Assembly: GCA_036263015.1 (NCBI GenBank)
Contig: DATAHU010000213.1
Location: 7,683-71,682, forward strand
Length of the DNA stretch: 64,000 bases
Source: Polyangiaceae bacterium
Lineage (GTDB): Bacteria; Myxococcota_A; Polyangia; Polyangiales; Polyangiaceae
Reading direction: 5' to 3'
Shown: positions 17,313 to 28,903 of the stretch, piece after piece
Position numbering within the stretch: the stretch's first letter is position 1
Layout: every line of letters begins with the position of its first letter
Translations under genes and position numbers: made by a program
Notes under the pieces: model-generated
Databases searched by the model: none
The model's input: only the letters and a program-made list of their open reading frames with translations
What the model was told of the DNA's origin: nothing

Positions 17313-18368
17313 ATGGGCGAAGGCAAGAACCTAATCGGAGTCGACATCGGCTCGAGCTCCATCAAGGTCTGCCAGATCAAGGAGAGCCGTAAAGGGCTGC
17401 TCTTGCATCGCCTTGGATTCGCGCCGTTACCCCCTGGCGCTGTCGTCGACGGGCAAGTGATGGACGCCTCGACCGTGGTCGAGACGCTCAAGCGAGTGCT
17501 CGCCGATTCGCGCGTGCGCGGTAGAGAAGCAGCGCTCAGCGTCTCGGGTCAGAGCGTGATCATACGCAAGATCACGGTGCCCTTGATGACGCCCTCCGAA
17601 TTGGCGGAGCAGATCACGTGGGAAGCCGAGCAGCACATCCCGTTCGACATCAAGGACGTCCAAGTCGACTATCAGGTGCTGCGTCGCCGCGCCGACGCGG
17701 GACAAATGGATCTGTTGCTGGTCGCGGCGCGCAAGGATCAAATCAGTGCCTATGCCCAGCTGGCCAAGGACGCCAAGCTGAAACCGCTGGTCGTCGACAT
17801 CGATGCGTTCACGATTCAAAACGCCTTCGAAGCGACCTTCGGGGTGGAGGAGCGCGAAGTGGTGGCTCTGATAAACGTGGGTGCCAGCTTGTCTTCGTTG
17901 AACGTGTTGGCGGGCGGCACCAGTTCCTTTACGCGCGAAATTGCTCATGGCGGTAACCTGATAACGCAAGAAATTCAGCGTCAGATGGGCGTGCCTTTCG
18001 AGGTCGCAGAAGCGTTCAAGTGCGGAGCGGCGCCCGACGGCAGCCCAGTGCCAGCCCAAGTGGCGCCGATCATCGAACAGAGCGTCGACTCGATTGCCGC
18101 CGAAATTCAGCGCAGTTTGGACTTCTTCATGGCCACCAGCGGCGAGGGTGACATTGCGCGGGCGGTGTTGACCGGCGGGACCGCGAATCTGCCAGGACTC
18201 GCGACCGCGATCGAGCGCCGGGCTCGGGTTTCGGTTCAAACGCTGCACCCCGCAACGCGCTGTACACCTGATAGCAGTATCAATCGAGCTGTGTTCGATC
18301 AGCGCGCGCCGCAACTGGCCGTCGCGTTGGGCCTGACCTTGCGCAAAGAGCGGGAGGCGCGGGCGTGA
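17313..18368 (+). CDS. pilM: Type IV pilus assembly protein PilM (actin-like ATPase fold)
   Basis: 351 aa. N-terminus GVDIGSSSIKVCQIKE. It is the first gene of a pilMNOPQ-ordered, translationally coupled operon. Confidence 0.9.
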   Translation: MGEGKNLIGVDIGSSSIKVCQIKESRKGLLLHRLGFAPLPPGAVVDGQVMDASTVVETLKRVLADSRVRGREAALSVSGQSVIIRKITVPLMTPSELAEQITWEAEQHIPFDIKDVQVDYQVLRRRADAGQMDLLLVAARKDQISAYAQLAKDAKLKPLVVDIDAFTIQNAFEATFGVEEREVVALINVGASLSSLNVLAGGTSSFTREIAHGGNLITQEIQRQMGVPFEVAEAFKCGAAPDGSPVPAQVAPIIEQSVDSIAAEIQRSLDFFMATSGEGDIARAVLTGGTANLPGLATAIERRARVSVQTLHPATRCTPDSSINRAVFDQRAPQLAVALGLTLRKEREARA

Positions 18369-19003
18369 TCCGCATCAATCTGCTGCCCGCTTCGCGGGCG
18401 AACCAAGCTTCCTCCGGCAGCCAAGCTTGGCTGATCGCGGTGGTCGTGTTTGCTGCGCTCGAGATCATCGGCTGCTTCGTGCTTTACGGAAACAAGCAGC
18501 AACAGCTCGAAGACTGGGGCCGCAAGAACAAGACCGTCGAGACCGAGATCAAGCTCTCGCAAGAGAAAGTCGCGGATCATCCGAACGTCAAGGCCAAGTT
18601 GGCGCAGCTCAAAGCACGTGAGGACGCCATTGCGCGTTTACAGAGCGCACGCACCGGCCCGACTGCTGCCATGCTCGAGGTCGCACATCTGCTCTCGAAA
18701 GGTCGAGGGCCGAGCGTCGCCCCAGAGCGCCTGGAGCAGATCAAGAACGACGATCCGCTCGCGATGTACAACCCACAATGGGACCCAAGAAGGCTTTGGT
18801 TGTCGTCCTTCGTCGAAGATTCTCGCACGGTGCGGCTCACCGGCTCGGCGCGTGACGGCGAGGACGTGAGCGAGCTGGCGCGGCGGATGAATCTCTCGGT
18901 CTACTTTTACGACGTGCGTCTGCTTCCCGGTAAGAAAGAATCCACCGCAAAGGACGCGGTCAATTCGGTCAGCTTTCAGCTCGAAGCGCGGGTGAGGTAC
19001 TGA
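18365..19003 (+). CDS. pilN: Type IV pilus assembly protein PilN
   Basis: 212 aa. It starts with the typical IRINLLP motif followed by a single TM. Its GTG start overlaps the pilM stop (GTGA). Confidence 0.85.
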   Translation: MIRINLLPASRANQASSGSQAWLIAVVVFAALEIIGCFVLYGNKQQQLEDWGRKNKTVETEIKLSQEKVADHPNVKAKLAQLKAREDAIARLQSARTGPTAAMLEVAHLLSKGRGPSVAPERLEQIKNDDPLAMYNPQWDPRRLWLSSFVEDSRTVRLTGSARDGEDVSELARRMNLSVYFYDVRLLPGKKESTAKDAVNSVSFQLEARVRY

Positions 19004-19620
19004 TGGCAGCTGCCAAGAAGAGCACACTCGGGCGACTCGGATTGCCGGGGCGCATCGGCATCGGGGTCGTCCTCTTGGCGTTACCTCTTGCCGTCTACTT
19101 CATCATCTTCGACAGCGAGATCCAATCGGAGATCGACGCGGCGGCCAACAAGAATCAGAAGCTGCAATTCGATCTGAAACAAGCGCAGGCTGCCGAAGCG
19201 CTGTATCAACAGGATCTGCAAGAGTTGGCAGAGCGCGAGCGAAATAAGCGCGAATTGATGAAGGTCTTGCCGGTGTCTACCGAGTACCCGGCGTTTCTGA
19301 GCGCGATTCAGAGCGTTGCCAACCTCGTCGGTGTCGAACTCAGGGCATGGACGCCACTCGAAGAAGTGCCAGAAGAGTTCTATGCGCGCGTGCCCATGAA
19401 AGTCGAGCTCGGCGGGCGCTTCCACCAGATCGCGAAGTTCCTCTACAACGTCGGCCAGCTCGAGCGCATCATCAACATGGAGAACCTCTCCATCACGCTC
19501 GGCCCCGCGACAGACCAAGAGACGGTGCTGAACGTCAGCGTACTGGCCACGGCATTTCACGCGTTGGACGAATCTGCAGCCGCGGGTAATCCCGAAGCTC
19601 GTCGACGGAGGGACCGATGA
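19003..19620 (+). CDS. pilO: Type IV pilus assembly protein PilO
   Basis: 205 aa. Single N-terminal TM, then a coiled-coil and a ferredoxin-like C-terminus. Its position falls between pilN and pilP, with start/stop overlap on both sides. Confidence 0.8.
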   Translation: MAAAKKSTLGRLGLPGRIGIGVVLLALPLAVYFIIFDSEIQSEIDAAANKNQKLQFDLKQAQAAEALYQQDLQELAERERNKRELMKVLPVSTEYPAFLSAIQSVANLVGVELRAWTPLEEVPEEFYARVPMKVELGGRFHQIAKFLYNVGQLERIINMENLSITLGPATDQETVLNVSVLATAFHALDESAAAGNPEARRRRDR

Positions 19621-20228
19621 ACTCGTTCACGAGCCGCGCGATCCTGTGCAGTGCGCTGCTAGCTGCTTGCTCGGAGACCCCCGTCAACCAAGGCAGTGCC
19701 CCGACCGCGTTTCCGGGACCCAAGCCAAACGCACCGCAAGCTGCCCCAGGCGCCGCGCCCGCAGCCGAGGCGTCCGTTGTGTTACCGCCCAAGGCGGACT
19801 TCACCGAGGAAGACTTCGCGGAGAGTGATCACAACCGCGATCCCTTCAGATCCTATCAGGATCTGTTCGTCGAACATCCCGTCGCGCAGCAGATGGTCAA
19901 GCAGCCCGTGGTGCTGGAGAACTTCGCTCTCGACGACTTGAAGCTGATCGGCGTGGTTACCGGTATCGTCCCAGCGAAGGCGATGCTCGTCGACCCCGGG
20001 GGCAAAGGTCACGTCATCCAGCGCAATGACCTCGTTGGCCGTGCCGAGCGGGTTCAATCCGGCTCGTCGAACACGGAGTATCAGATCAACTGGCGCGTCG
20101 ATCAGATCCGCGAGTCGGACGTCGTGTTCGTGCGCGAGGATCCATCGAATCCCGACGTTCCCAGCGCAACCCGCGTGATCGCTCTTCGGACCAAAGAAGA
20201 AGAGCAAGAGCTCAACCAGCCGAACTGA
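19617..20228 (+). CDS. pilP: Type IV pilus assembly lipoprotein PilP
   Basis: 203 aa. Lipobox ALLAACSE. It has a Pro/Ala-rich linker and a beta-rich C-terminus. It overlaps pilO as ATGA. Confidence 0.75.
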   Translation: MNSFTSRAILCSALLAACSETPVNQGSAPTAFPGPKPNAPQAAPGAAPAAEASVVLPPKADFTEEDFAESDHNRDPFRSYQDLFVEHPVAQQMVKQPVVLENFALDDLKLIGVVTGIVPAKAMLVDPGGKGHVIQRNDLVGRAERVQSGSSNTEYQINWRVDQIRESDVVFVREDPSNPDVPSATRVIALRTKEEEQELNQPN

Positions 20229-20357
20229 GACGGGCGCGCCCGTGCGTGTCACTGGTGCACGAAGCGCTGGGTCTGTGCGTACTGGCTTCCGCCCCCAACC
20301 TGGAAAAGGCGACCGGTAATTTGGTTGGGTTGTCTAGGGGTTGCTACGGTGCGAAAG

Positions 20358-22751
20358 ATGTTTGCTTGGTACGCTCGCATGACCCGTTCGCGCCGAACTC
20401 GTGCTGCCCGCCGCTCGATTTCGCTTCTCGCGCTGGCGGCGTGCCTCGGATCGGTGCCCGCGCACGCGGAACCGCTGAGTCGGTTCGCGACCAGCATGCA
20501 CGTGCAAGGGGATGCGGCGAGCACGCTTCTCGTCGTCGACTTCACCAGTCCCCCGACGTATAGCGCGCGCTACGTCAAAGCTCAGCGACGGCTGATTGTC
20601 GACATCAACGGCAGCGGCGTCAAAGGCGCACCCCCGGCACTGAGCGCCCCGAAAGGCTTGGTCGCGGGGGCGATGCTGCAAGAGTTCAAATCGGGCAACT
20701 CTTCCACCACACGCCTGATCGTGAGCTTGGACAAGGATGCGCCTTACGCCGTATCGAGCGTCGGCAATTCGCTGCAAGTCAGGCTCGGCCAGGGCGACAC
20801 TACGGCCAAGGCGAACGCTCCTGCTAGCCCTGTGAAACGCGCGGGCGCAGCCGGCGACAAGGTCAACAGTCGTGTGCGCACAGTCAACTTCTCGAAGCAC
20901 GGCGTGGAAGAGCGCGTCAGCATCGAGCTTGGCTCCGCGTGTCGTTACGAGCAACGACGCGTCAATCCAACGACGACGCGGCTTGAATTGCAGAACACGG
21001 AGCTGCCGAGCGAATTGCAGCGCGCCCTCGACGTCCGCGCGTTTGGCGGCGGAGTGAGCCTCGTCTCGACGTACGCGACGAACGACGGCCGCGTGATTCT
21101 CGAAGTCGAGCACGGCGAGCGCGTCGAGTCGCGCATCGAGCGCCGGGGTAGCGTGTTGCTTTGGTCATTTTTCGAGGGCACGGTTCCCTCCAGCGTGAGC
21201 GGTCTTGCTTTGGACGGCAAAGTCGCACGCAAGACGCGCACCATCTTCACCGAGCCCGGGCTGTTGCAGCCCGAATCGGACGAGGCGAATCGCTTGGTCG
21301 TTGCCGAAGACGATAGCGCACAGCCGACCCAAGACCTCGCAGCGGATACGAAGAGCGCGGCAACCGCGGACGAGTCCGAGGCACACGTCGTGACGCGCAC
21401 GCCAGAACAAGCCGCAGCCTACGAGGGCACGGGCAATGGACCTGGCCACTACACGGGCCGTCGCGTCGACCTCGACTTCAAGGATGCCGACATCCACAAC
21501 GTGCTGCGCCTGTTGGCCGACACGGGGCGGGTGAACATCGTCGCCGCCGACAACGTTGCCGGTTCGGTCACGATTCGCATGAAGAACGTGCCTTGGGACC
21601 AAGCACTCGACGTCGTGTTGCAAGCGAAGAGCCTGGGCATGGACCGCCGGGGCAACATCATTCGCGTTGCGCCCCAGGCCGATTTGGAGAAGGAGCGCGA
21701 AATGCAGATCGCGCGGCGCCAACAAGAGTTGCAGTTGGCACCGCTCGAGACGCGCTTGATCCCGATCAGCTATGCGCAAGCTGCGCAGATCCAGGCTCGC
21801 GCTCACGATCTGTTGTCCGCACGCGGCTCGATCGCCGTCGATGCGCGCACCAACGTGTTGATCGTGCGCGACGTGGCTGGCAACCTCGATCAGATCGAAG
21901 AGCTCACTCGCTCGCTCGATACCCAGACGCCGCAGGTGTTGATCGAAGCGCGCATCGTAGAAGCCACGAGCCGCTATCTGCACAGCGTGGGTATCCAGTG
22001 GGGTGGGGACGCGAGCTTCAGCGCGTCCAGCGGTAATCCGACGGGTCTAGCATTCCCCAGTTCGGTGGGCCTCGCGGGCGGTGCAACCGACGCCAACACG
22101 CCCACGGCGGGTCTCTCCCCATTCCAGGCCCGCGTCGCCAACCCCAACTTCGCAGTCAACCTGCCAGCGACGGTCGGTCAGGGTTCGGGTGGTGCGTTGG
22201 GTCTGACGCTCGGTTCAGTCGACAGCAACTTCAACTTGGCGTTGCGTCTGTCTGCTGCGGAAGCGAGCGGTATGTTGCGGATCCTTTCGAGTCCGCGCGT
22301 CTTGACGCTGGACAACACCGAAGCGCGCATCAGTCAGGGTACGTTGATCCCGTTCAGCCAAGTCAGCGCGCAGGGCGTTCAAACGACCTTCCAAGAAGCC
22401 AAGCTGCAGCTGCTCGTGCAGCCCCACGTCACGGCCGATGGCAGCGTCAGCATGCACGTGAAGATCAACCGCGACGAGCCCGACTTCAACCAAACGTCAC
22501 CACGCGGTGATCCCACGATCTTGAAGCGCGAAGCCGAGACCGAGCTCTTGGTGATGGACGGTCACACTGCAGTGATCGGCGGCATCTTCACCCGCAACAC
22601 CGGTCGCAACGTCGACCAGGTGCCGTTCTTCGGTGACATTCCGCTCTTGGGCTTGCTGTTCCAGAAGCGCACGGCGAGCGACACGCGCGGGGAGCTCGTG
22701 ATCTTCTTGACCCCGCGGATCGTCAATCGCGCTGAAGCGCTTGGCCGCTAG
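20358..22751 (+). CDS. pilQ: Type IV pilus secretin PilQ
   Basis: It has N-terminal AMIN-like repeats (LLVVDFTSPPTYSARY...LIVDINGS). The C-terminal secretin core is GGIFTRNTGRNVDQVPFFGDIPLLGLLFQKR...LVIFLTPRIV. The start is uncertain: TTG 20325, ATG 20358 or ATG 20379. Confidence 0.9.
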   Translation: MFAWYARMTRSRRTRAARRSISLLALAACLGSVPAHAEPLSRFATSMHVQGDAASTLLVVDFTSPPTYSARYVKAQRRLIVDINGSGVKGAPPALSAPKGLVAGAMLQEFKSGNSSTTRLIVSLDKDAPYAVSSVGNSLQVRLGQGDTTAKANAPASPVKRAGAAGDKVNSRVRTVNFSKHGVEERVSIELGSACRYEQRRVNPTTTRLELQNTELPSELQRALDVRAFGGGVSLVSTYATNDGRVILEVEHGERVESRIERRGSVLLWSFFEGTVPSSVSGLALDGKVARKTRTIFTEPGLLQPESDEANRLVVAEDDSAQPTQDLAADTKSAATADESEAHVVTRTPEQAAAYEGTGNGPGHYTGRRVDLDFKDADIHNVLRLLADTGRVNIVAADNVAGSVTIRMKNVPWDQALDVVLQAKSLGMDRRGNIIRVAPQADLEKEREMQIARRQQELQLAPLETRLIPISYAQAAQIQARAHDLLSARGSIAVDARTNVLIVRDVAGNLDQIEELTRSLDTQTPQVLIEARIVEATSRYLHSVGIQWGGDASFSASSGNPTGLAFPSSVGLAGGATDANTPTAGLSPFQARVANPNFAVNLPATVGQGSGGALGLTLGSVDSNFNLALRLSAAEASGMLRILSSPRVLTLDNTEARISQGTLIPFSQVSAQGVQTTFQEAKLQLLVQPHVTADGSVSMHVKINRDEPDFNQTSPRGDPTILKREAETELLVMDGHTAVIGGIFTRNTGRNVDQVPFFGDIPLLGLLFQKRTASDTRGELVIFLTPRIVNRAEALGR

Positions 22752-22806
22752 GGCCTGTGAGCCACTAGCGGTCGTGAGTTAAGCGAGCCCGTTGGGCCAA
22801 CGGGTA

Positions 22807-23025
22807 TCAGCGACCGGCGCGACGACGCGACGCAAACATGACCGCCGCGCCCAGCAGCACGACGGTGGCCGCGCTTCCCGCGCTGCGGCTGAGCTCAGGC
22901 GCGCGTGTAACTGCACCTGGGGTACCCGCTGGATTCGGATGAGGGACGGCGCCTGCGTTTGCACCCGCCAGAACGGTGACGGTTGCGATTGCGAAAGCCG
23001 AGGTGATACGTTGAAAGCGAGTCAT
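22807..23025 (-). CDS. 72-aa secreted mini-protein with a PEP-CTERM-like C-terminal sorting tail (putative exosortase substrate)
   Basis: SD AGGAG lies 7 nt before the ATG. Signal peptide MTRFQRITSAFAIATVTVLAGANA. Pro/Gly-rich core GAVPHPNPAGTPGAVTR. The tail is APELS, then hydrophobic SAGSAATVVLLGAAVMFA, then SRRRAGR. The gene lies 140 bp downstream of an exosortase-type gene. Confidence 0.65.
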   Translation of the reverse strand: MTRFQRITSAFAIATVTVLAGANAGAVPHPNPAGTPGAVTRAPELSRSAGSAATVVLLGAAVMFASRRRAGR

Positions 23026-23165
23026 ATGGGGGCTCCTGTGCGGTTGGCGGACACTACCACGCAGCTCGGGCGCCGCAAGCCGAGCCGCTCACCGTCAAGG
23101 CGCGGTGTGCCGAAAGGGAAGCCCTAACACACCCTTGGTACAGGTCTCAAACTGGAGATCCGTGC

Positions 23166-24782
23166 TTAGAGCCAGGACGTCCAATCATGGGTCAGCACGC
23201 CGTGAACCAACAAGGCCGCATTCGTGGTCGCGTGAGCGATCACTGCCTCACGCAGGCCACCCGTCCAACGCGCTAGCAACCCATAGAGCAAGCCCACGAC
23301 CAGCGCGGCTGAGGTCGCGTCGTGTAACAGCGCGAAAAGCAGGGCAGAAAGCAGGATCGTCCAAATCGGGGTGTGTTCATATGCGACCGCTTCGAAGCGG
23401 CGAGCGACGAGTCGGCGCGGGATGTAACCGCGGAACGCGAGCTCCTCCGCGATCGGGATCGTCAACACTGAGCCAAGTGCGCGAAAAACAAACCATATGC
23501 CGCGCTCCGGCTGAGTGAGGCTCGCGAGCTGTCCGCTGAAGACCGCCAGGCGTTCTGGATCGGCCAAGGGCTGGAGCCAGAGCCAGACTCCGCATGCGAA
23601 CAAACCGCAAGCCACGCTTCTGAGCTGGATCCCAGCGATTAAGTCTTTGAAATCAAAGCGCTGCAGACTGAGCACGAGCAGTGTCGCGATGACGCCCAAG
23701 GGGTAGAGGCGATCGAGCGGTTCGAAAACCAACCCCGTCAACAGCGAGACCCCACTGGCCACGACGATCGGCAAGAGGAACCGAGCCGTCTCTTGGGCGT
23801 GCCCAGATAGCGGGGCTTCTTGCGGCTTGGAGCCTGTTCGGATCGCTGCCACGCGGTTGACGACCGCCACCCCAACGAGACCCGCGCCACAGAACAACAG
23901 CCAACCCGCTTTCGAATGGAATGCGCCGGCAGCGAGGCTCGGAGATACCCGCGCACCGAGCCACGTCAGCGTCGCGATGCGCGCGATATTTGCACTCCAG
24001 ACGCCTGCGACGGCTGCCGGCAAAACCAGGCACGCCCGCCACAGCACCAGTTCTCGGCGCATCAAGGCGATGTACCCTCCGAGGAACCCGATCATCAGGC
24101 CAACTCCCTCGTAACCTGAACATACGGGGGCAATATCGACACCGAAGTCATCGAGCCAAACTTCGTTGCCCGGCCCGCGCTCTGGGGACTGACCCACGAC
24201 TCTGAGCGTTCCAATCACGGCGTTTAGGACGACGCCGCTGTGTCGCGACCAGAGCGCTCGGGTCGCGAGCCCGCCCAGCGCCGAAAACAACGCTACCCCC
24301 GCCACGGGCAACCAGGTCGGCGCGCTCGCTAGCACGCTTCGAAATGTAAACTTGGGCCACGCCCAATGGGTTCGTCCGTAGATCCAAACAAGCCCGGCGA
24401 CGAACCAGGCGGCGAACAGAGCCGAGCTCGGTGGCAGGGGCGTCAGGACACTGCGCGACAACCAGTAGAAGACGGCAAATGCGACGCAGCCGAGCGCGAA
24501 CTCCGCGTACAAGGCACGCTTCGATTGGGTTTGATGGACCAGCCCTCGAGCAGCATTCTCGAGGCCCAAACGACCACGCAGCGCGACTATCGCGGCGAAC
24601 AAGATGAATAGTAGCGGGGCCTCGTCACCCGCGTCCCCGAGCTTCGACCAGAGCCGGTCGTGGTTTCTCAGGGTCGCCACGTCGAACGAAAGACTGAGGC
24701 AGACGTACTCGGCGAACACGAGGACGAGCGAGAGGATTCCGATCCGGGGAAATCGTGCCCACCAACGTCTAGGTTCGTTCAT
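23166..24782 (-). CDS. Exosortase-family domain fused to a CPBP (CAAX/Abi) intramembrane glutamic protease domain
   Basis: 538-aa polytopic protein. Exosortase motifs occur in order: DIAPVCSGYEG (Cys), SANIARIATL (Asn/Arg), GAFHSKAGWLLF (His). C-terminal CPBP motifs: EELAFRG, LFALLHD, HATTNA. Confidence 0.8.
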   Translation of the reverse strand: MNEPRRWWARFPRIGILSLVLVFAEYVCLSLSFDVATLRNHDRLWSKLGDAGDEAPLLFILFAAIVALRGRLGLENAARGLVHQTQSKRALYAEFALGCVAFAVFYWLSRSVLTPLPPSSALFAAWFVAGLVWIYGRTHWAWPKFTFRSVLASAPTWLPVAGVALFSALGGLATRALWSRHSGVVLNAVIGTLRVVGQSPERGPGNEVWLDDFGVDIAPVCSGYEGVGLMIGFLGGYIALMRRELVLWRACLVLPAAVAGVWSANIARIATLTWLGARVSPSLAAGAFHSKAGWLLFCGAGLVGVAVVNRVAAIRTGSKPQEAPLSGHAQETARFLLPIVVASGVSLLTGLVFEPLDRLYPLGVIATLLVLSLQRFDFKDLIAGIQLRSVACGLFACGVWLWLQPLADPERLAVFSGQLASLTQPERGIWFVFRALGSVLTIPIAEELAFRGYIPRRLVARRFEAVAYEHTPIWTILLSALLFALLHDATSAALVVGLLYGLLARWTGGLREAVIAHATTNAALLVHGVLTHDWTSWL

Positions 24783-27328: not shown

Positions 27329-28903
27329 TCAACGCCTGCCGCCAAAATCCGAGAACGGGTCTTGAGGCTTTGCTTTTGCAGGTTCAGCCTGGGCTGGCTT
27401 CTTCGTTACTTTGGGCTGGTTCCCGCGAGGCGCCGCCGCTGTCTGCGTTGCGCTACTGCTCGGCGCGACGCTCGCTGCGTCCGTCGAAGCGCTTGCGGCG
27501 CTGTTCGCCGCGGGTTCCGTCTCTGACGTGGCGACTGCCGCAACCTGCGGCGTGACGATCGCTTTGACGGGGGGCTGCGCCGGCGCCTCGACCACGGGTG
27601 GGCTCGCGACGATCGACGCGGGGGGCGCAATGGCTGGGGCGGGGGCGTCTTGTGCGTTACCCGCGCGTAGCCACACAGCCGCAGCCGCGCCAGCGAGCGC
27701 AACGAGTCCAACGCTGGCCCAGAGTGCGGCCGACTTGCGTCCCGGGTGCGCGCTTGCGCTGCGACCGCCCGTGCGCCCCCAAGAGTTACCCGTGTCACCC
27801 GTGGTGTGCACGGGCGGCGGCGGGTCGGAGCCCTCGACCACCGGAATGGCGTCGGTCGTCGGCGGCCCGATATCCTGTGGGCTCAACTCGGTGCGCGGTG
27901 CAGACGTTTCTGCTCTGCGGGCAGAGGCAGAGCCCGACATCGCGGGGATGTCACCCGTGACCCGAGTCTTGGGATCGACCTTGGAATTGCCGGCCAGAGT
28001 GTGCACGCGGCGAATGCGTTCCGAGTAGCGATAGCCATCGACTTGGAATGGCGCGAGCGCGTCCGCCAAATCGGCGACGCTCGAGATCCGCTTGTGCTTG
28101 TCGATCTGCAGGCAGCGGTCGATCACCTGACTCAAACGCTCCGGCACTTCGGGGCGCGCTTCTTTGGCCGGTGTGTAGTTACCCGTCAACACGGCGCGCA
28201 CGAGTTGCGGTAACGTTTCTCCACCGAAGGGTACGTTGCCGATCAGTAGCTCATACAGGATAACACCCAATGACCAGATGTCGGCGCGCTCGTCGGCTTG
28301 CTTCGACGATTCCAACTGCTCGGGCGACATGTACAGCGGCGAGCCGACCATGATCGCGGTCTTGGTCAACGCCAACTGCGGCATCGAATCGGCGTTGAGC
28401 GATTTCGAGATCCCGAAGTCGAGCACTTTGACGAGCCGCGAGCCATCCGGACGCCGCGTGAGAAACAGGTTGGCGGGCTTCAGATCGCGATGCACGATGC
28501 CCAAGCTGTGGGCCTCGGCGATCGCCACGCTGGTTTGCAGTACGCAATCGACGGCCTCGTCGATCGGGAAGCGACCATTGCGTTCGATCTCCGTCGAGAC
28601 GTCGTGGCCATTGAGGAACTCCATGACCATGTACGGAATGCCGCCGGTCATCGTTCCAACGTCCACGACGCGCGCGACGTGCTCGCTCTGGATCTTCACG
28701 GCCGCGCGCGCTTCACGTCGAAAGCGCTCTGATGCTTCGCGGCTCTGCGCGTATTCAGGCAACAGGAACTTGACCGCGACGCGCTGCTCTAACTCTACGT
28801 GCCACGCAGCGACCACGACGCCCATGCCGCCTTGCCCGAGCACTTGCTCCACTCTGTATTTGTCCGCAAGGACCTCACCGACGAGAACGGGCGACGCTGC
28901 CAT
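27329..28903 (-). CDS. Ser/Thr protein kinase (Hanks type) with a Pro/Ala-rich C-terminal region and a TM segment
   Basis: Glycine loop LGQGGMGVV, lysine VAVKFL, catalytic loop HRDLKPANLF, DFGISK, and SPEQ. A TM segment (LWASVGLVALAGAAAAVWL) is followed by a low-complexity tail. Confidence 0.9.
   Translation of the reverse strand: MAASPVLVGEVLADKYRVEQVLGQGGMGVVVAAWHVELEQRVAVKFLLPEYAQSREASERFRREARAAVKIQSEHVARVVDVGTMTGGIPYMVMEFLNGHDVSTEIERNGRFPIDEAVDCVLQTSVAIAEAHSLGIVHRDLKPANLFLTRRPDGSRLVKVLDFGISKSLNADSMPQLALTKTAIMVGSPLYMSPEQLESSKQADERADIWSLGVILYELLIGNVPFGGETLPQLVRAVLTGNYTPAKEARPEVPERLSQVIDRCLQIDKHKRISSVADLADALAPFQVDGYRYSERIRRVHTLAGNSKVDPKTRVTGDIPAMSGSASARRAETSAPRTELSPQDIGPPTTDAIPVVEGSDPPPPVHTTGDTGNSWGRTGGRSASAHPGRKSAALWASVGLVALAGAAAAVWLRAGNAQDAPAPAIAPPASIVASPPVVEAPAQPPVKAIVTPQVAAVATSETEPAANSAASASTDAASVAPSSSATQTAAAPRGNQPKVTKKPAQAEPAKAKPQDPFSDFGGRR

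Follow-up and report, generated by a model that had tools for sequence, protein, structure and literature searches.

A predicted exosortase E/protease fusion and an adjacent 72-residue VPEID-CTERM-class precursor in a Polyangiaceae genome

A 64-kb stretch of DNA from a Polyangiaceae bacterium, referred to here as the window, probably carries a two-gene XrtE module, judging from the sequences of the two genes and their relatives. The module would consist of a fusion enzyme, in which an exosortase domain precedes a CPBP protease domain, and a dedicated micro-precursor of the VPEID-CTERM class that bears the variant motif APELS; the scan for tails of this kind covered the 64-kb window. The genes, their parts and the flanking elements are listed in Table 1. 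The ORF coordinates, the motifs and the Shine-Dalgarno (SD) sequence 7 nt ahead of the start codon that were given in a preliminary description of this DNA are all present, and both ORFs lie on the minus strand. That description proposed an exosortase/CPBP fusion paired with an adjacent tail-bearing mini-substrate, and HMMs, invariant residues and comparative loci agree with the proposal.

Table 1. Positions in the window of the predicted XrtE module and its non-coding flanks.
Feature	Position	Strand	Basis or remarks
xrtE, 538-aa exosortase E/CPBP-protease fusion	23166..24782	-	about 15 predicted TM helices, N-terminus cytoplasmic; HMMs, identity to named XrtE, AF2 model
Exosortase domain (aa 1-315, 8 TM helices)	23838..24782	-	C221 (codon 24120..24122), N265/R268, H289
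CPBP domain (Rce1-like, glutamic-type intramembrane protease; aa 327-538, 7 helices)	23169..23804	-	E446-E447...R451, H487, H517...N521
Intergenic spacer of 140 nt, xrtE to mini-gene	23026..23165	-	SD AGGAG (23033..23037), 7 nt ahead of ATG
Predicted mini-substrate gene (72 aa), GenBank HEX2734628.1 'hypothetical protein'	22807..23025	-	tail HMM E = 7.4e-5; 69-aa orthologue in L092
Predicted Sec-type signal peptide, aa 1-24 (MTRFQR n-region, h-region, A-N-A site)	22954..23025	-	sequence features
Pro/Gly-rich core of 17 residues, GAVPHPNPAGTPGAVTR, sole 'cargo'	22903..22953	-	direct reading
Signature motif APELS, VPEID-class variant	22888..22902	-	motif statistics, 83 neighbour tails
Tail: R-S spacer, 18-residue hydrophobic helix AGSAATVVLLGAAVMFAS, basic RRRAGR	22810..22887	-	best-conserved part of the protein
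Palindrome CCCGTTGG-C-CCAACGGG just past the mini-gene stop codon	22788..22804	-	lies where mini-gene and pilQ converge; function uncertain

The 538-residue protein scores above the cut-offs of the exosortase, XrtE and CPBP models. TIGR04162 (XrtE) matches residues 159-535 with 160.6 bits (E = 6.7e-47; curated NCBIfam cut-off 150 bits), and the exosortase/archaeosortase signature TIGR04178 reaches 46.5 bits (cut-off 23). The C-terminal domain is matched by TIGR03008, pepcterm_CAAX (93.1 bits; equivalog cut-off 81.05), as well as by PF02517 (55 bits; cut-off 22.4), and the Pfam families Exosortase_EpsH and Rce1-like both match the protein. The exosortase motifs read DIAPVCSGYEG (C221), SANIARIA (N265/R268) and GAFHSKAGW (H289), and the CPBP motifs read EELAFRG (E446/E447/R451), LFALLHD (H487) and HATTNA (H517/N521). 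No substitution of C221, N265, R268, H289, E446, E447, R451, H487, H517 or N521 occurs among 28 homologues (29-48% identity), and these residues include the aligned Cys/Arg/His triad described for exosortases (10.1101/2023.06.07.544157; PMC11980579). An identical protein (P0001) is named XrtE by both NCBI and JGI, its GenBank name being 'exosortase E/protease, VPEID-CTERM system [Polyangiaceae bacterium]', in line with the catalogued XrtE/VPEID-CTERM class named in the preliminary description. The further statement there that such enzymes occur mostly outside Myxococcota does not hold, as XrtE is common in MAGs of Polyangiales and Myxococcales. By its sequence the protein is a member of the XrtE family, and the fusion itself is already catalogued. 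EpsH-CAAX fusions were noted in 2006 and read as a functional link (PMC1569441). No experimental characterisation of any XrtE/VPEID-CTERM system was found in the literature searched.

A confident AF2 model of the enzyme has a pLDDT of 84.9 and a pTM of 0.78. When this model was compared with the PDB by Foldseek, no structure, Rce1 included, matched at E <= 0.001, and a profile search of PDB sequences with the enzyme gave 0 matches. Helix boundaries and loop charges place C221, N265/R268 and H289 of the exosortase domain in the half of their helices that faces the periplasm, while the predicted topology puts the CPBP catalytic residues in the half of the membrane that faces the cytoplasm. Based on these boundaries and the positive-inside rule, the two active sites would lie in opposite leaflets, and not in the same leaflet as the preliminary description had considered, an arrangement that would fit both ends of a substrate helix.

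The mini-gene is located 140 nt downstream of xrtE on the same strand. Its product reads MTRFQRITSAFAIATVTVLAGANA, GAVPHPNPAGTPGAVTR, APELS, RSAGSAATVVLLGAAVMFAS and RRRAGR, after which comes the stop codon. A heuristic reading of the N-terminus finds an n-h-c pattern with A-N-A at residues 22-24. APELS is presumed to be the site of recognition and cleavage by the exosortase domain at the periplasmic face of the membrane, and RRRAGR is presumed to be cytoplasmic. An ORF that is short, low in complexity, rich in Ala, Gly and Arg and matched by no curated model could be a chance ORF in GC-rich DNA with a coincidental motif, but the likelihood of this is practically nil. The ORF has a proper SD, and the only start codon 5' of the tail in its stop-to-stop frame is an ATG. 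It is the only ORF with such a tail among the six frames of the 64-kb window, which is the extent to which the tail-pattern scan, proposed in the preliminary description for the full proteome, bears out the uniqueness of the mini-gene. A tail HMM built without the window's own sequence gives the mini-ORF 18.4 bits (E = 7.4e-5), its sole significant match in the window, against 4.8 bits (E = 1.3) for the runner-up among 1,216 segments of the window. The comparative data, in which an orthologue is kept next to an enzyme of 45% identity (locus L092) against a null expectation of 0-1 such ORFs per 458 kb, effectively refute the chance origin.

The non-coding flanks contribute few further features. 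The GCAGGAGC box also precedes the ATG of the orthologue in L092. No Rfam family matched the spacer, and no sigma-70-like promoter was found near the gene pair. The palindrome past the mini-gene, taken as RNA, is no more stable than shuffled sequences (z = -0.66) and has no T-run. In the strain variants L087-L091, which are 99.7% identical, the mini-ORF has 3-4 substitutions, of which 2-3 are synonymous and 1 is non-synonymous, numbers that are suggestive but leave dN/dS underpowered.

The coupling of enzyme and mini-gene, both statistical and syntenic, is evident from a comparison set of 88 independent XrtE loci comprising 458 kb of sequence, a kind of adjacency that has been used as evidence for enzyme-target pairs (10.1101/2023.06.07.544157; PMC11980579). 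An adjacent ORF with an [AVT]PE[ILM][DSNG] motif, a helix and a basic (Arg/Lys) end occurs in 71 of the 88 loci, close and distant ones alike; where at least 1 kb is available on both sides of the enzyme gene, it is present in 31 of 37 loci and absent in 6. The 458 kb contain 89 such tail ORFs, whereas reversal of the sequence leaves 0 and shuffling 0-1. Most tail ORFs share the strand of the enzyme gene (78/89), and the median gap is 71 bp. Across the family the mini-gene is more commonly found upstream of the enzyme gene; here it is downstream. Clustering of 1,040 neighbour ORFs from the 88 loci gave no third component common to more than 6 loci, suggesting that the pair is the functional unit.

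Locus L092 offers the closest comparison. Its enzyme is 45% identical to that of the window, a 69-aa orthologue with APELS occupies the same position, and the two loci have in common the gene order kinase, BfoA_C, XrtE, mini-gene and pilQ. Identity between the two mini-proteins is concentrated in the tail (19/31, 61%), and is lower in the signal peptide (5/25) and the core (5/17, 29%).

The motif was described initially as a non-canonical (A)PEL variant, a description that the family does not uphold. In 83 neighbour tails P and E of the motif are invariant (83/83), A (36) and V (34) are about equally frequent at position 1, 18 tails have L at position 4 and 11 have S at position 5, and APELS itself occurs at two other loci, L009 and L092. 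The Arg directly after APELS is peculiar to the mini-protein, as none of the 83 other tails has it (P, A, V, G or S is found there). The VPEID-CTERM model TIGR04161 gave no match at E <= 10 with either the 72-aa ORF or its isolated tail (cut-off 33 bits). Of 10 XrtE-adjacent tails tested, only 1 passed this model, and the orthologue in L092 scored 12.2 bits. Since TIGR04161 misses 9 of 10 other clear XrtE-adjacent tails, it is a narrow model and the tail of the mini-protein is not aberrant, which amounts to a concrete annotation fix for a model that overlooks most real partners. From its sequence, the 72-aa protein is a real predicted cognate partner of XrtE, its APELS lying within normal family variation and constituting no new motif.

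Other C-terminal sorting signals were considered for the mini-protein. Assignment to PEP-CTERM was rejected, given that the motif is P-E-L without a second Pro and that TIGR02595 gives no match at E <= 1 (cut-off 16). Assignment as a substrate of an LPXTG-type sortase was likewise rejected, the scores being generic and below threshold (LAETG 17.0 versus 30; NPXTG 13.1 versus 23.5). Alternatively, the 72-aa protein could be a MYXO-CTERM (or other Cys-type) substrate of a stand-alone myxosortase, with its adjacency to XrtE being coincidental. The host belongs to the Polyangiaceae, JGI labels P0135, a close relative of the L092 orthologue, as 'MYXO-CTERM domain-containing protein', and some relatives give weak, sub-threshold MYXO-CTERM scores. 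The MYXO-CTERM motif, however, has an invariant Cys (10.1101/2023.06.07.544157; PMC11980579), whereas the 72-aa protein has zero Cys and TIGR03901 gives no match at E <= 1 (cut-off 20), on which grounds the assignment was rejected. The adjacency statistics, moreover, link PE-type tails with XrtE in different phyla, and the chance that a myxosortase is the true partner is very slight.

A pathway can be proposed for the XrtE module. The 72-aa precursor would be exported by the Sec system and cut by signal peptidase I after A-N-A24. The remaining 48 residues would form a single-pass peptide with the core and APELS at the periplasmic face, the helix in the membrane and RRRAGR in the cytoplasm. By homology with ArtA, the exosortase domain would cut at or beside APELS and, by means of Cys221/Arg268/His289, become joined through a thioester to the N-terminal fragment (about 20 residues), which would then be transferred to an acceptor (a lipid head-group or glycan) or to water. 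In what is the most speculative step, the fused CPBP domain may attack the same helix from the cytoplasmic side and trim or clear the helix-Arg remnant.

What such a pathway would deliver depends on the precursors, which are predicted to be tiny as a rule throughout the XrtE family (median 70 aa; 72 of 79 at <=110 aa). The very small peptide product suggested in the preliminary description is thus a trait of the family at large, and the catalogued WP_104428931.1 is itself only 87 aa. The cores are short and hypervariable and are enriched in G, P, H and W; those at L014, L024 and L079 are His-rich. Some loci have tandem arrays of 2-4 paralogous precursors, and folded cargo of 220-280 aa occurs on the same tail at L001, L003 and L059. 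In about 25% of the precursors the motif follows the signal-peptidase site after 0-5 residues, which leaves them practically without cargo, as in the 50-aa precursor at L044. A simple 'sort the cargo' model fails to explain this predicted cargo-less quarter. Since many of the family substrates carry almost no cargo, the biological product of the XrtE branch is probably not a folded surface protein, a prediction which challenges the default 'protein sorting' reading.

The cargo-less members could also mean that the mini-protein is not a substrate but a stoichiometric membrane partner, a pseudo-substrate or a regulator of XrtE, for instance a hairpin or single-pass subunit that fills the active site. 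Conservation is higher in the tail than over the enzyme as a whole, and adjacency is strict and mostly on the same strand, both of which would be in keeping with such a role. The tripartite tail, however, is laid out exactly as in cleaved sorting signals, all 23 cargo-less relatives have retained a small-x-small signal-peptidase site before the motif, the invariance of both protease sites would imply catalysis, and the folded cargo mentioned above is attached to the same tail. It is improbable, on balance, that the mini-protein acts in this manner.

Alternatively, the module could serve peptide maturation instead of protein sorting, the mini-protein being the precursor of a very short peptide (a signal, metal-binding or RiPP-like peptide) that is released or linked to lipid or glycan. 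XrtE would then provide two proteolytic steps, by analogy with AgrB and MroQ in the production of the staphylococcal AIP. The action of a Cys peptidase and a CPBP protease on one small precursor has a precedent (PMC9388083), and the small size of the precursors, the hypervariable, low-complexity cores between two conserved signals, the RiPP-like tandem arrays and the His-rich cores all point in this direction. Nevertheless, the quarter of the precursors that have 0-5 residues before the motif would leave nothing to mature, the 88 loci show no conserved gene for a receptor, transporter or modification enzyme near the pair, and anchoring of the substrate, not its release, is what has been seen so far in the exosortase and archaeosortase homologues under study. 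Peptide maturation in this form, the analogy with the Agr system included, is unlikely.

A broader proposal, which is tentative and which we regard as possible though doubtful, is that XrtE modules may be peptide-processing machines with two active sites working on one single-pass micro-precursor, and not sorting systems. A Cys transpeptidase in the outer leaflet and a glutamic protease in the inner leaflet might act at the two ends of one helix, and so yield a peptide between 0 and about 40 residues long, to be either ligated to a lipid or glycan or set free; for the cargo-less quarter, the product might derive from the tail itself. If this were true, the module would be the equivalent of AgrB/MroQ-AgrD in Gram-negative bacteria, and the XrtE family, which includes at least 739 clusters at 50% identity, would define a new class of ribosomal micro-peptide products. 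More immediately, the 'hypothetical protein' HEX2734628.1 becomes the predicted cognate substrate of an annotated enzyme. Exosortases are widespread, and an XrtE module may offer the simplest means at hand of testing them: it consists of two genes, lacks a conserved accessory gene and has a substrate whose length of 50-90 residues suits it well to mass spectrometry.

Among known systems, the Agr system of staphylococci is a functional analogue only, as there is no homology between AgrB and exosortases. AgrB, a polytopic Cys peptidase, works through a thioester to take the C-terminal tail off a precursor of about 46 aa, and MroQ, a CPBP/Abi protein, makes the second cut (PMC9388083). The AgrD precursor gene adjoins the enzyme gene, as the mini-gene does here, but the Agr system is Gram-positive, lacks a Sec signal peptide and has a thiolactone ring and a linked receptor kinase, none of which is seen at the XrtE pair. 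The myxosortases MrtX and MrtC with their MYXO-CTERM substrates (PMC11980579) come from the same phylum and resemble the module in having a CPBP-type protease and a tripartite C-terminal tag. They differ in that the enzyme is CPBP-only and the tag needs an invariant, presumably modified Cys that the window's tail lacks, and the Mrt models score the window's enzyme far below their cut-offs (Mrt_core 38.9 versus 100; MrtC 35.6 versus 195).

The archaeosortase ArtA of Haloferax volcanii, which acts on PGF-CTERM, is an experimentally studied homologue of the exosortase domain and the basis of the chemistry proposed above. ArtA removes the C-terminal helix of PGF-CTERM and is needed for lipid attachment (10.1101/2023.06.07.544157; PMC11980579). 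It differs from XrtE in being archaeal, in lacking a CPBP fusion, and in having a large S-layer glycoprotein as cargo and another motif. XrtA (EpsH) with PEP-CTERM is closer in that it has a homologous Cys/Arg/His exosortase domain and a tripartite signal with a P-E core, and the window's CPBP domain is of the same lineage as the free-standing TIGR03008 partner of EpsH in EPS loci. PEP-CTERM systems are located in EPS loci and have many, mostly large cargo proteins per genome. In the window, by contrast, the enzymes are fused, the motif is without a second Pro, the neighbour is a micro-protein and there is no consistent EPS linkage. The nearest system is XrtE/VPEID-CTERM as defined by Haft and colleagues (TIGR04162, TIGR04161), from which the window's pair departs in having APELS followed by Arg where (V/A)PEID is usual, and in failing TIGR04161. 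It has in common with that system the same fusion of an 8-TM exosortase with a CPBP domain and a small secreted neighbour with a tripartite tail of [A/V]PE[I/L][D/S], helix and Arg, and the Methylobacter member WP_104428931.1, cited above, is similarly tiny. The module itself thus belongs to a known kind, and the point of interest is the near-absence of cargo across the XrtE family.

The 538-residue reading frame previously described as an exosortase fused to a CPBP protease was recovered on the minus strand, with all of the quoted motif residues in place (C221, N265/R268, H289, E446-E447/R451, H487 and H517/N521). Curated cut-offs were exceeded by TIGR04162 (XrtE, 'exosortase E/protease, VPEID-CTERM system'; 160.6 bits, cut-off 150), by the exosortase/archaeosortase signature TIGR04178 (46.5 bits, cut-off 23) and, within the last 190 residues, by TIGR03008, the CPBP equivalog accompanying PEP-CTERM systems (93.1 bits, cut-off 81.05). 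Pfam matches were Exosortase_EpsH and Rce1-like. Across 28 aligned homologues (29-48% identity), no variation was seen at the presumed exosortase catalytic residues or at any CPBP motif residue, and the family comprises 739 clusters (50% identity, E <= 1e-30) that are full-length fusions nearly throughout. The enzyme is a known one that already carries an annotation, since an identical protein named XrtE, from a Polyangiaceae MAG, is present in NCBI and JGI, and EpsH-CAAX fusions were noted in 2006 and read as a sign of a functional link (PMC1569441). The preliminary description was essentially right in its interpretation but overestimated its novelty.

The neighboring 72-codon gene (hereafter the mini-gene) was likewise found as described, with AGGAG 7 nt ahead of an ATG that is the sole start codon upstream of the tail in the stop-to-stop frame. 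Its product consists of a predicted signal peptide (MTRFQRITSAFAIATVTVLAGANA), a core (GAVPHPNPAGTPGAVTR), and a tail made up of APELS, the helix RSAGSAATVVLLGAAVMFAS and the basic end RRRAGR. The Arg directly after APELS is atypical, being absent at that position in every other tail examined. GenBank carries the mini-gene as a called gene labeled 'hypothetical protein', and its product gives no match to TIGR04161, the NCBI VPEID-CTERM model. A tail HMM built from 82 tails, with the window excluded, gave the mini-ORF 18.4 bits (E = 7.4e-5) and the runner-up among 1,216 window segments 4.8 bits; no second ORF with such a tail was found in the six frames of the whole 64-kb window. The mini-gene is a new, hitherto unlabeled member of the catalogued VPEID-CTERM class. 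A chance ORF was excluded by the tail HMM score, by an orthologue in the syntenic relative L092, and by pattern counts in shuffled and reversed controls, while a MYXO-CTERM identity was excluded by the absence of the defining Cys. P0135, a 69-aa APELS-tail protein from the 90%-identity cluster of the L092 mini-protein, is named 'MYXO-CTERM domain-containing protein' in JGI; this label is probably a mis-annotation, since the cluster representative from L092 has no Cys.

TIGR04161 is a narrow model. Only one of ten obvious XrtE-adjacent tails (from L009, L014, L016, L025, L044, L052, L053, L054, L079 and L092) passes its 33-bit cut-off. It belongs to a His-rich protein of 87 aa that is identical to WP_104428931.1 (Methylobacter tundripaludum, 'VPEID-CTERM sorting domain-containing protein'); literal VPEID tails reach just 12-22 bits. 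Most of the tested tails are missed, and most cognate substrates are therefore publicly labeled 'hypothetical protein'.

Relatives of the fusion were gathered from 6 genome loci, 80 metagenome loci and 1 syntenic locus, and ORFs were sought whose C-terminus has [A/V/T]-P-E-[I/L/M]-[D/S/N/G], then a hydrophobic helix and finally a basic cluster. Such an ORF adjoins the enzyme gene in 71 of 88 independent loci, and in 31 of the 37 that are flanked by 1 kb or more on each side. The tail ORFs are mostly on the enzyme-gene strand (78/89), at a median gap of 71 bp. The pattern was matched 89 times over 458 kb, versus 0 times in reversed and 0-1 times in triplet-shuffled sequence; its one occurrence in the window is the mini-ORF. 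P and E are invariant in the neighbor tails. APELS had been called non-canonical, but it is an ordinary family variant, since A (36; V, 34; T, 9), L (18; I, 58) and S (11; D, 63) are common at positions 1, 4 and 5, and the complete motif recurs in L009 and L092. Six well-flanked loci (L004, L049, L061, L063, L069 and L080) have no recognizable tail ORF nearby, and relaxing the pattern did not reveal one; their substrates may use another motif or lie elsewhere in the genome. The module is limited to the enzyme and one or more mini-substrates, since no third gene family is common to more than 6 of the 88 loci.

The L092 fusion is 45% identical to the window XrtE and has the same gene order (Ser/Thr kinase, 359-aa gene, BfoA_C lipoprotein, XrtE, mini-gene, convergent pilQ), the order of the three genes upstream of xrtE being conserved. 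Its 69-aa mini-protein reads MRHLFHATLLLSVLSTGLIANDAEA, TRRPRPGATPVVS, APELS, ASTGGMALVVLLGAGAIFAS and RRQKRS, and identity to the window mini-protein is 19/31 in the tail, 5/25 in the signal peptide and 5/17 in the core. Because identity is highest in the tail, sequence comparison indicates that constraint acts on the sorting tail rather than the 'cargo'. In five strain contigs that are nearly identical (99.7%), the mini-ORF is retained with 2-3 synonymous changes and 1 non-synonymous change, an underpowered sample that is consistent with coding. In these contigs (L087-L091) the 219-nt mini-gene and the 1,617-nt enzyme gene each have 3-4 substitutions, a density about 7-fold higher in the mini-gene, though the numbers are small. 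Adjacency to pilQ is shared by L087, L088 and L092, the last of which is more distant, and is absent from the remaining XrtE loci in the 88-locus neighbor comparison, so it is probably lineage synteny. The 392-aa putative lipoprotein had no match in the Pfam and NCBIfam profile sets searched; its counterparts in the strain and orthologue contigs carry a precomputed PF28386 'BfoA_C' match. The palindrome between the convergent genes lacks a T-run, and folded as RNA it is no more stable than shuffled sequence (z = -0.66); it may act in weak bidirectional termination or in protein binding, or have no role at all.

Features of the window and of comparison loci (L numbers)
Feature	Location	Strand	Remarks
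pilM/N/O/P/Q-like type IV pilus cluster	17313..22751	plus	ends convergently 56 nt from mini-gene stop codon
PilP	19617..20228	plus	
PilQ secretin	20325..22751	plus	AMIN, STN, Secretin_N, Secretin domains
Palindrome CCCGTTGG-C-CCAACGGG	22788..22804		between convergent mini-gene and pilQ
Mini-gene, 72 aa	22807..23025	minus	HEX2734628.1
xrtE, 538 aa	23166..24782	minus	140 nt from mini-gene
Cys-rich putative lipoprotein, 392 aa	24857..26035	minus	upstream of xrtE
TPR/membrane protein, 373 aa	26035..27156	minus	start overlaps 392-aa gene
Ser/Thr kinase	27329..28903	minus	upstream of xrtE
Tandem near-identical mini-precursors, 49-70 aa each	L020:415-1301; L028:1374-2053; L052:1351-1979		beside xrtE
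Further tandem arrays	L022, L039, L043, L044, L045, L046, L066, L072		beside xrtE
His-rich, Asn-rich, Trp-rich or Lys/Asp/Phe-repeat cores	L014:1928-2209; L024:2613-2906; L079:1624-1935; L064:416-640; L040:516-842		
226-aa ORF, IPEPS-helix-RRQVRRSK end	L044:2954-3634	plus	downstream of XrtE gene

XrtE substrates are micro-proteins that are nearly all signal and often cargo-less. A start could be assigned to 79 tail ORFs. Their median length is 70 aa, with 72 of them no longer than 110 aa and only 6 above 140 aa. In 20 tail ORFs the 27 or fewer residues ahead of the motif amount to a putative signal peptide alone, and each of the 23 precursors with no more than 30 pre-motif residues keeps a small-x-small signal-peptidase site, placed 0-5 residues ahead of the motif. 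Several tandem precursors have zero residues between this site and the motif. It is possible, though improbable, that the mini-protein is a non-cleaved partner or regulator of XrtE; this would suit the cargo-less members but is difficult to reconcile with the conserved signal-peptidase sites, the invariant catalytic residues, or the few large-cargo members with the same tail (L001, L003 and L059). The 226-aa ORF in L044 has a PEP-CTERM-like rather than VPEID-like tail, in a locus that also has two 50-aa VPEID precursors.

Cores, where present, are short, hypervariable and of low complexity, enriched in His (3.4x), Trp (2.9x), Pro (2.1x) and Gly (2.1x) and depleted in Leu, Ile, Met, Tyr and Glu. 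The strongly His-rich makeup of some (e.g., HEHRHGDRHGHGHWHGH and HGNHGHHGHHGLGHGHG) points to metal binding; Asn-rich and Trp-rich cores also occur, as do Lys/Asp/Phe repeats. At 15 loci, 2-4 paralogous mini-genes stand in tandem. Tiny hypervariable cores and tandem precursors would both suit peptide maturation analogous to that of AgrD by AgrB/MroQ (PMC9388083), which we nevertheless consider rather unlikely, as cargo-less members do not fit it and no receptor or transporter is linked among the neighbors at the 88 loci. Near-cargo-less substrates are a family-level puzzle beyond the standard sorting model, and the two-gene module would offer a very tractable system for learning the actual job of an exosortase.

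Neither fold search nor sequence profile found a solved structure resembling XrtE. An AlphaFold2 model from a 28-sequence alignment is of good confidence (mean pLDDT 84.9, pTM 0.78) and has about 15 membrane helices. Helix boundaries and loop charges place the N-terminus in the cytoplasm, with eight predicted exosortase helices, a cytoplasmic linker (312-326) and seven CPBP helices. An acidic beta-hairpin in the periplasm would precede the helix that carries C221, with C221 itself two residues from the periplasmic start, and R268 and H289 would lie in the outer halves of the two helices that follow. For E446/E447 the predicted position is in a long helix, some five residues above its Arg-rich cytoplasmic end; in the last helix, H517/N521 would be 6-10 residues above the point where it starts on the cytoplasmic side. 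Given these positions, the two active sites most likely face opposite leaflets, which partially answers whether they share one, as the preliminary description had asked. Such an arrangement would match a substrate whose single helix has APELS at its outer and RRR at its inner face.

The mini-protein is most likely processed in five steps. Following Sec export, signal peptidase I would cleave the precursor to a single-pass intermediate of 48 residues. C221 would then attack at APELS, forming a thioester with a fragment of about 20 residues that would be handed to some acceptor or hydrolyzed. Finally, the CPBP domain may trim or dispose of the helix-Arg remnant on the cytoplasmic side, as the topology and the repeated pairing of exosortases with CPBPs of the TIGR03008 type suggest. 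The thioester and transfer steps are modeled on the homologue ArtA, which shares the Cys/Arg/His triad and in which removal of the helix is accompanied by lipid attachment (PMC11980579; 10.1101/2023.06.07.544157).
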